509 nucleotides of DNA from Escherichia coli. Lineage in GTDB: Bacteria; Pseudomonadota; Gammaproteobacteria; Enterobacterales; Enterobacteriaceae. The first letter of the stretch is position 1. Each line of letters opens with the position of its first letter. Of this stretch, positions 1-509 are shown piece by piece. The stretch is taken from the NCBI RefSeq assembly GCF_003334385.1, contig NZ_QOWN01000173.1. One strand, 5' to 3'. The notes beneath the pieces were generated by a model. That model did no database searches. It saw only the letters and a list, made by a program, of their open reading frames with translations, and was not told where the DNA came from. Position numbers and translations under genes: made by a program.

Positions 1-28
1 GGCTCTTCCGCAACCTGGGTGGAGATTT
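1..28. repeat. Putative right terminal inverted repeat (IRR) of the ISL3-family element; exact inner boundary undetermined
   Basis: Seen in sequence: 1..28 is GGCTCTTCCGCAACCTGGGTGGAGATTT, immediately downstream of the transposase stop on the minus strand. Established knowledge, from memory and not database-checked: several ISL3 members such as IS31831 have IRs starting GGCTCTTCC/G, and family IRs are about 15-40 bp. The left end is not in the window, so the IR length cannot be confirmed by pairing. Confidence 0.45.
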
Positions 29-509
29 TCATGCCAGTGGACTCATTACCCTCTGCCTGAGTAGTTCAAATCCTGCTCGACCATACATCTGGCGTTTCAG
101 CATCTTCAGGCGATTTACATGACCTTCGACAACACCATTACTCCAGCGACTACTGATTGCCTCACATATAGCTGCAGCATCAGCTTCCATCCCCGCCGCC
201 ACGCGCCGAAATTCTGCTGAACCGCTTTCGTGGACTCGAGTGAACCAACTGCTTAGCTGTGATTTATTTTGGGTTTTCAGAATACGGTAGAACTCGAGTG
301 CCAGTTGCTGCGCTATTTTCAGCTCAGGTTCTTTTTCACACATCAGACTAATAAATCGGGAAGCATAATTTTCTTCATCCCTGGTTATTCTCCAGGGCAT
401 CAACCAGCGGCTTACCCGGGACACTGAAGGAAGTCTGACGGCAGTAGTAACCGGTGGGTTCCAGCCTTTACGCCATTTGGCAACCGCATCCCTGACGATG
501 GTTTCACTG
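29..509 (-). CDS. ISL3-family transposase, C-terminal part (DDE_Tnp_ISL3-like); 5'-truncated by the window edge, about 159 codons plus stop visible
   Basis: Seen in sequence: the minus-strand frame runs from the window edge (codon 508..506) to a TGA stop at 31..29 with no in-frame stop. The track's start at 424..422 is GTG, and the same frame upstream reads ...SETIVRDAVAKWRKGWNPPVTTAVRLPS before it. Established knowledge: the C-terminal segment WSNGVVEGHVNRLKMLKRQMYGRAGFELLRQRV (about 44..142) fits the conserved ISL3 transposase C-terminal signature, roughly SNGxxEGxNNxIKxxKRxxYG, which holds the catalytic Glu of the DDE triad (here E in VEG, codon 127..125). ISL3 transposases are about 400-450 aa, so most of the N-terminus lies beyond position 509. 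Confidence 0.85.
   Translation of the reverse strand, partial: SETIVRDAVAKWRKGWNPPVTTAVRLPSVSRVSRWLMPWRITRDEENYASRFISLMCEKEPELKIAQQLALEFYRILKTQNKSQLSSWFTRVHESGSAEFRRVAAGMEADAAAICEAISSRWSNGVVEGHVNRLKMLKRQMYGRAGFELLRQRVMSPLA

Follow-up and report, generated by a model that had tools for sequence, protein, structure and literature searches.

The 509-base window analysed here (the whole stretch of DNA) starts with GGCTCTTCC at positions 1–9, and it raises the question of whether position 1 is the tip of an insertion sequence and what kind of DNA lies beyond it. The window contains a single long ORF on the minus strand, with its stop codon at 31..29 and open to the right edge. According to the ORF list and translation, this ORF (29..508) is the 3′ part of the ISEc38 transposase gene and encodes residues 381–539 of a 539-aa protein. 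The initial annotation had noticed the GGCTCTTCC motif at the window start with the transposase stop just inside it, and both were confirmed. The 9-mer by itself is not significant in 509 bases (at least one match in 37 of 200 shuffles, with one mismatch allowed), and its significance comes from the context.

The window showed 100% identity with many plasmid and chromosomal copies in E. coli, annotated as ‘ISL3-like element ISEc38 family transposase’. The sequence was matched in 3,199 records from 2,991 of the 5,426 complete genomes, and the majority of these records belong to one single-copy chromosomal relative that is ~94% identical. L008 (E. coli IHE3034) represents this relative, which recurs in about 2,450 further records; it is usually a pseudogene, and around half of all complete E. 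coli genomes have one chromosomal copy of it. The full 539-aa protein (L001) scored 376.3 bits against the NCBIfam transpos_ISL3 profile (NF033550), for which the cut-off is 180. Two separate segments of it matched Pfam DDE_Tnp_ISL3 (E 1e-19 and 1e-13), and a match to Zn_ribbon_ISL3 was also obtained (E 2e-6). The C-terminal half of DDE_Tnp_ISL3 (PF01610, residues 413–534) lies at 47..412 of the window, on the minus strand. The complete core is 1722 bp long and contains one gene; 1722 bp is presumably also the length given in the ISfinder entry for ISEc38. Papers and supplements (ISfinder itself lay outside this coverage) give ISEc38 by name only, and no length or end coordinates were found in them.

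The outer tip of ISEc38

The full E. coli copies (L001–L009) were compared over both ends. Window positions 1–23 (GGCTCTTCCGCAACCTGGGTGGA) were identical at 21 of 23 bases to the reverse complement of the other end (GGTTCTTCCGCAACTTGGGTGGA), giving a terminal inverted repeat at the transposase-stop end (IRR, 1..23) with its outer tip at position 1. Like the family repeats, which are expected to span about 15–39 bp, those of ISEc38 begin with GG. Among relatives from four phyla, G1, G2, T4, C5, and T6 were invariant, and in five of them (L034, L042, L043, L047, and L050) an 8-bp target duplication directly adjoins the homologous GG. When copies were compared, 100%-identical 1722-bp cores were bordered by different sequence straight outside the GG. 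At two E. coli loci, L096 and L098, IS100 sequence takes over where the core stops, at the position-1 boundary. Position 1 as the outer tip of the stop-proximal inverted repeat of ISEc38 is thus supported, because the two ends pair at 21 of 23 bases and the 8-bp duplications of the relatives abut the GG. These were also the observations that upheld the earlier proposal of an ISL3-family tip at position 1, including its suggested check of the opposite end against the window start, where the inverted repeat was matched over 1–23. The tip itself is ordinary, already known biology.

An 8-bp direct repeat around the full element had also been anticipated. It was clean in the five relatives and absent around the common E. 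coli form, which has inverted IS100 tips and then a 5-bp repeat outside them. The same annotation had placed an IS/host junction at the window edge; the IS boundary proved true, but in the full E. coli copies compared, one decayed end in L009 apart, the flank is the terminal 21 bp of IS100 and not ordinary host DNA.

IS100 termini beside the E. coli copies

Conservation ran 21 bases beyond the GG at all ends of the nine full E. coli copies, with the single exception of a decayed end in L009. One side carried the X tip, TGTCACGAACGGTGCAATAGT, and the other side the Y′ tip, TGTCAACGACGGATGAAAAGT, and the flanks diverged beyond these 21 bases. IS100 ends in exactly these sequences, with TGTCACGAACGGTGCAATAGT as its istA-side terminus and TGTCAACGACGGATGAAAAGT as its istB-side terminus. 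L010 holds an IS100 whose termini read Y′ + GATCCAC... and X + GATCCAC..., and three further IS100-family copies agreed with X and Y′ as termini. A similar picture was obtained for the Klebsiella relative ISSen3, which has the termini TGTCAACGACGGGTAAAAAGT and TGTTACCAACGGTGCGAAAGT. In Citrobacter amalonaticus (L026) the relative of ISEc38 is flanked by exactly both ISSen3 termini, and the tips in L025, L027, and L029 are nearly ISSen3 termini. Because of this identity with the IS100 and ISSen3 termini, the 21-bp tips are read as the outermost sequence of an IS21-family element, one from each end, and not as part of the ISL3 element. TGT...ACA termini, the CS1–spacer–CS2 arrangement, and a 4–5 bp duplication belong to the flanking tips (IS100 nucleotides 1–21 at each end), not to ISEc38.

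The core with its two tips makes a 1764-bp unit, which was bracketed by perfect 5-bp direct repeats in L002, L004, and L007 (E. coli) and in L014, L018, L025, and L026. IS100 itself showed duplications of 5 bp, namely GTTTA (L094), ACCAC (L095), and TTCCG (L099). The order of X and Y′ relative to the transposase gene was one way in L001–L003 and L008 and the other way in L004–L007. The cores of L001, L002, and L004 had 0 differences in 1722 bp, yet the tips were swapped between L001/L002 and L004. Both junction types were widespread, in 2909 and 802 records.

Some copies showed local peculiarities. The left Y′ tip of L005 has a 4-bp deletion, and a variant X tip, TGTCACGAACAGTGCAAAAGT, was found in the L008-type relative and also on the otherwise ISEc38-identical L003. 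In the M8 plasmid (L001, 2623–2982) the tipped copy interrupts the istA of another IS21-family element, and a dense nest of IS66, IS21, and IS3 fragments surrounds it.

The terminal repeat of IS21 elements consists of two GC-rich boxes, CS1 and CS2, with ~10 A+T-rich bp between them, where HTH-2 of IstA reads CS1 and HTH-1 reads CS2 (PMC10122671). The IS100 end follows the order TGTCA, ACGACGG (CS1), ATGAAAAGT (spacer), and GATCCAC (CS2). The junction of the ISL3 core was always found at the boundary of spacer and CS2, in either the first or the second repeat. Budvicia (L017) and Rahnella (L023) showed the same junction point in the second repeat, with a tip of ~45 bp that includes a CS2 box.

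A junction made of the core end, TGAAAAGT, and GATCCAC... was predicted for insertion into IS100, and it was found with 66 of 66 bases in E. coli strain SMBL, in which the core adjoins nucleotide 14 of an IS100 that is intact in all other respects; the same 66-mer gave partial matches in 11 more genomes. In L096 the core end ...GGAAGAACC is followed by IS100 nucleotides 14–1954, with istB and istA intact, and the core is truncated on one side. L098 has a complete core (99.1% identical) that is bordered by Y′ at one end and, at the other, by IS100 starting from nucleotide 25/26; its orientation is opposite to that of L096, and it has 12 bp fewer than predicted. One junction per copy of the predicted duplication TGAAAAGT was what ISEc38 itself offered, with L098 deviating by those 12 bp. 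The equivalent single-insertion junction for the istA-side IS100 end was absent among the 5,426 genomes, and among the E. coli copies none had both junctions of a simple insertion together with the 8-bp duplication. Because both orientations occur in IS100 copies that still bear their interior (L096 and L098), the two tip arrangements are interpreted as insertion in either orientation, not as inversion. Inversion of the core between fixed tips was considered as a candidate and rejected, both orientations being found inside IS100 copies that keep the interior.

Our first reading had been a 1764-bp element extending to the left of the window, a case that the initial annotation had named as contradicting its tip, and it was dropped once the 21-mers proved to be IS100/ISSen3 termini. 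In its full form this explanation takes the 1764-bp unit as the real insertion sequence, with 44-bp imperfect inverted repeats (TGTCA...TGACA), its own transposase, and 5-bp duplications, so that window position 1 would lie 21 bp inside the element. The 21 conserved bases outside the GG in nearly all full E. coli copies (the L009 end excepted), flanks that diverge only past TGTCA, and the perfect 5-bp repeats at the loci listed above agree with it. However, the 21-mers match the termini of IS100 and ISSen3 end for end and change sides around identical cores, the cores are also found fused to IS100 interior, the relatives duplicate 8 bp directly at the GG, and 5 bp is the duplication length of IS100, which leaves the 1764-bp element highly improbable. 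A core that flips in place, via recombination between its 23-bp inverted repeats, is a shade less probable still. Near-identical inverted repeats do bound the core, and the two C/T differences between them are mosaic among copies, but with identical cores each of the two exchanges would have to lie within the 5-bp AGTGG and bypass the longer identical blocks, and independent insertions explain the orientations of L096 and L098 with no flip needed. Equally improbable to us is an arbitrary window start that only happens to coincide with the repeat tip. For windows drawn from inside the element, a random start would fall on the tip base about 1 time in 1,700, and whole contigs of relatives are bounded to within a few bases by the tips (L020, L041, L060, and L069).

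With position 1 taken as the ISEc38 tip, an assembly break at the window edge is plausible. Both alternative flanks were present at 100% identity on one plasmid, and with two alternative flanks in one genome a short-read assembler would therefore break exactly at the tip. In practical terms, the edge of the window or contig is a true IS boundary at which short-read assemblies will break, and the missing left flank is predictable as one of the two IS100 21-mers, TGTCACGAACGGTGCAATAGT or TGTCAACGACGGATGAAAAGT. The contigs of L020, L041, L060, and L069, which come from drafts of other species, are 1.7 kb long, and their ends coincide with the GG tips or miss them by a few bases; one has a flank of 1 nt and another of 13 nt. 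They look like collapsed repeats, and L037 (1,934 bp) may be another contig of this kind.

The IstA-like insertion and the wider subgroup

The Pfam match to the catalytic domain was split into residues 160–295 and 413–534, with an insertion between them. In the ISEc38 subgroup this insertion comprises about 115 residues, and ~95 of them align with IstA. Residues 302–395 aligned with residues 9–98 of IS100 IstA (34% identity, E 3e-11), with residues 10–104 of IS5376 IstA (PDB 8B4H/8Q4D, E 1.5e-11), and with positions 2–104 of the NCBIfam transpos_IS21 profile (E 1e-17). The profile score of 60.7 bits is below the cut-off of 160 and covers the N-terminal DNA-binding part of IstA only. The aligned span of IstA corresponds to HTH-1, the linker, and HTH-2. 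The last 15 residues of this tandem helix-turn-helix insertion (381–395) are encoded in the window at 464..508, minus strand, where the stretch SETIVRD aligns with the recognition helix of HTH-2. By our own reading of the alignment, of the four DNA-contacting residues named for IstA (PMC10122671), R31 and T92 were retained, K95 was replaced conservatively by R, and K32 was lost (to V).

A protein-based scan gave 78 loci from many phyla, and all 78 encode the long-form transposase. The ISL3 subgroup with the IstA module was found in Proteobacteria, Actinobacteria, Acidobacteria, and Chloroflexi. Every subgroup member found has the IstA-like module, with no module-free member as internal control.

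Three relatives from other phyla showed perfect 8-bp duplications at sites in the A+T-rich spacer of an IS21-type terminal repeat, and in two of them (L043 and L047) the neighbouring istA is complete or almost complete. In L043 (Bryobacteraceae) the duplication is CAGATTAG, an istA (208 bits) adjoins the element, and the terminal 13 bases of an IS21 element lie on the far side; the istB of this locus runs off the locus end and scored 199.4 bits, just below the 200-bit cut-off. In L034 (Rhodococcus koreensis) the duplication GTTTTTCA is accompanied by a TGTCGGCGGACA terminus on one side and, on the other, only by an N-terminal istA fragment of 135 aa, whose 42.9 bits fall below the cut-off of 160. 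The duplication in L047 (R. phenolicus), ACGTAATT, equals the spacer of the second repeat, and istA lies downstream. Two-tipped forms with 5-bp outer repeats, in both arrangements, were observed in Microtetraspora and relatives (L040, L044, and L046).

The survey of ends pointed in the same direction. A TGT started 20–23 nt outside the GG tip at 33 of the 69 resolvable ends, compared with about 3.6 expected and with 1–7 at thirteen control offsets, and a small second peak of TGT appeared at 44–47 nt. The A+T content was 64% in the 8 nt abutting the tip and 41% in the next 8. No recognisable IS21 ends were present in the flanks of L016, L030, L042, and L050.

The flanks of L016, L030, and L088 were inverted-repeat-like and A+T-rich by the tip, with no recognisable IS21 terminus and without an 8-bp duplication. 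Decayed sites or another target family may account for them. Serratia sp. AKBS12 (L075, 2278–3005) has a composite remnant in which the istB-side end of an IS21-family element, plus 220 bp of its interior, is deletion-fused to codons 389–539 of the ISL3 transposase, after which come the ISL3 repeat and a 21-bp istA-side tip. At the right end of L062 a 6-bp tandem GGATCT is seen beside the right repeat.

From the homology of the module with IstA and the target pattern at IS21 ends, we infer that the module would guide the element to these ends. We lean, by a narrow measure, towards a fuller account in which an ISL3 subgroup captured the tandem HTH of IstA, homes to IS21 repeats, and integrates between CS1 and CS2, in the spacer, so that the IS21 element residing there is disabled or hollowed out. 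One transposon would then prey on another, using a domain that it had acquired from this victim.

Proposed mechanism and spread of tipped copies

By combining these results, the main reading is that window 1–23 is the right-hand inverted repeat of ISEc38 and that ISEc38 and its ISL3 subgroup target the spacers of IS21 ends; we give this a probability of about 0.78. The ISEc38 transposase would cut at position 1, and the transposable unit would be the 1722-bp core GGCTCTTCC...GGAAGAACC, making the usual 8-bp target duplication. ISEc38 and the wider ISL3 subgroup would integrate into the 8–9 bp A+T-rich spacer between CS1 and CS2 of IS21-family end repeats. In E. coli the target would be IS100, and the DNA beside position 1 would then be the IS100 terminus, CS1, and spacer (21 bp). 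The two-tipped form would be the remnant of an invaded IS100 after loss of its interior. Candidate routes for this loss include a further event at the opposite IS100 end, a deletion next to the element, and recombination after two insertions.

A single genome had ISEc38 in as many as 12 places. In M8, RSHH22, and SK6988 the chromosome has seven to eight copies and no IS100 end sequence past the tips, each record giving a single place in the site searches, which fits either consumption or loss of IS100. No intact IS100 was found in any genome at the exact site of a two-tipped ISEc38 copy (sites of three copies searched). Intact IS100 elements were observed close by, at L095 3077–5030 and L099 2720–4673, which are 75 bp and ~28 bp away from two-tipped copies (L002 and L007, respectively). 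The paired IS100 and tipped copies share a zinc-ribbon gene or an IS66-family tnpA gene and have the same orientation, which suggests IS100 insertion hot spots near the tipped copies of L002 and L007. Because intact IS100 lies nearby, in the same genes and the same orientation, target choice of the IS100 type would have set the locations of these two tipped copies.

A different route of multiplication would make the core and its tips a miniature IS100 with ISEc38 as cargo, spread in trans by IstA and IstB and not through resident IS100 copies being invaded again and again. It is compatible with the main explanation and concerns only how copies multiplied. The unit is bracketed by 5-bp duplications and reached up to 12 places in one genome, and its copies share genes and orientation with intact IS100 elements only 75 bp or ~28 bp away, as though one machinery had selected both targets; no IS100 was found at exactly the same sites. 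The tips, however, hold only the terminus, CS1, and spacer, and are without CS2 and the second repeat, although both are contacted by IstA in the complex whose structure was solved (PMC10122671). The absence of IS100 end sequence beyond the tips in the M8, RSHH22, and SK6988 chromosomes also speaks against mobilisation in trans, which moreover leaves unexplained why the same spacer position is used across IS21 relatives and in second repeats. We consider this route doubtful, with about one chance in four in its favour.

A very small IS100 derivative was also seen. In L011, L012, and L013 (E. coli SMS-3-5 and others, 3001–3047) a 47-bp miniature IS100, made of the X tip, GGATC, and the other tip, lies in an IS3-family orfA and is flanked by the 5-bp repeat CTGTC. 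It was present in 503 of the 5,426 genomes, and its left deletion breakpoint is IS100 nucleotide 21/22, where ISEc38 cores join. A 42–47 bp ‘empty carrier’ MITE as the usual target was rejected, since this form occurs at one E. coli locus only and is an internal-deletion derivative of IS100.

Returning to the reading that ISEc38 targets IS21-end spacers, its consequences are both practical and general. IS annotation tools would misplace ISEc38-like ends or overlook the surrounding IS100 remnants. Targeting of this kind, if real, would provide a natural DDE transposase retargeted by an inserted DNA-binding module, an example of competition between mobile elements, and a simple model for engineering site-directed DDE transposases. 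In the searchable literature (most subscription journals and ISfinder being outside this scope), no description was found of ISL3 elements targeting IS21 ends or of ISEc38 copies embedded in IS100 termini. The IS21-end targeting habit of ISL3 elements therefore appears to be undescribed.

Compared with known systems, the element is the same as ISEc38 of the RefSeq annotation and ISfinder-derived tools in its transposase, inverted repeat, and whole-window nucleotides. In canonical ISL3, IS1165, IS31831, and IS1096 the inverted repeats start with GG(C/T)TCT, and the target duplication is 8 bp long. ISEc38 shares with them the DDE_Tnp_ISL3 catalytic domain and the N-terminal zinc ribbon (domains tested for ISEc38), whereas the ISEc38 subgroup differs by the IstA-like insertion and the strong association with IS21 ends. 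With IS100, ISSen3, and IS5376 of the IS21 family the likeness is of another kind, as the tips are IS100/ISSen3 termini and the transposase insertion is homologous to HTH-1/HTH-2 of IstA. ISEc38 is not an IS21 member, however; it is without the istA catalytic domain and without istB, and its catalysis is of ISL3 type.

IS4321/IS5075 and other IS1111-family elements reportedly use a DEDD transposase with an RNA guide, insert in a single orientation, and make no target duplication. ISEc38 resembles IS4321/IS5075, which land in Tn21-family terminal repeats, in its fixed landing position inside the terminal repeat of another transposon. The ISEc38 subgroup has instead a DDE enzyme, an 8-bp duplication, and insertion either way round, and it appears to employ a protein module that comes from its victim's transposase. 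The targets of IS1397 and ISKpn1 are loops in repeated palindromic units, and dedicated target selectors are used by Tn7-like and Tn5053-like elements. Common to all of these and to ISEc38 is a specific repeated sequence where they can land safely. They differ in transposase family and target, and the putative selector of ISEc38 is no separate protein but lies inside the catalytic domain itself.
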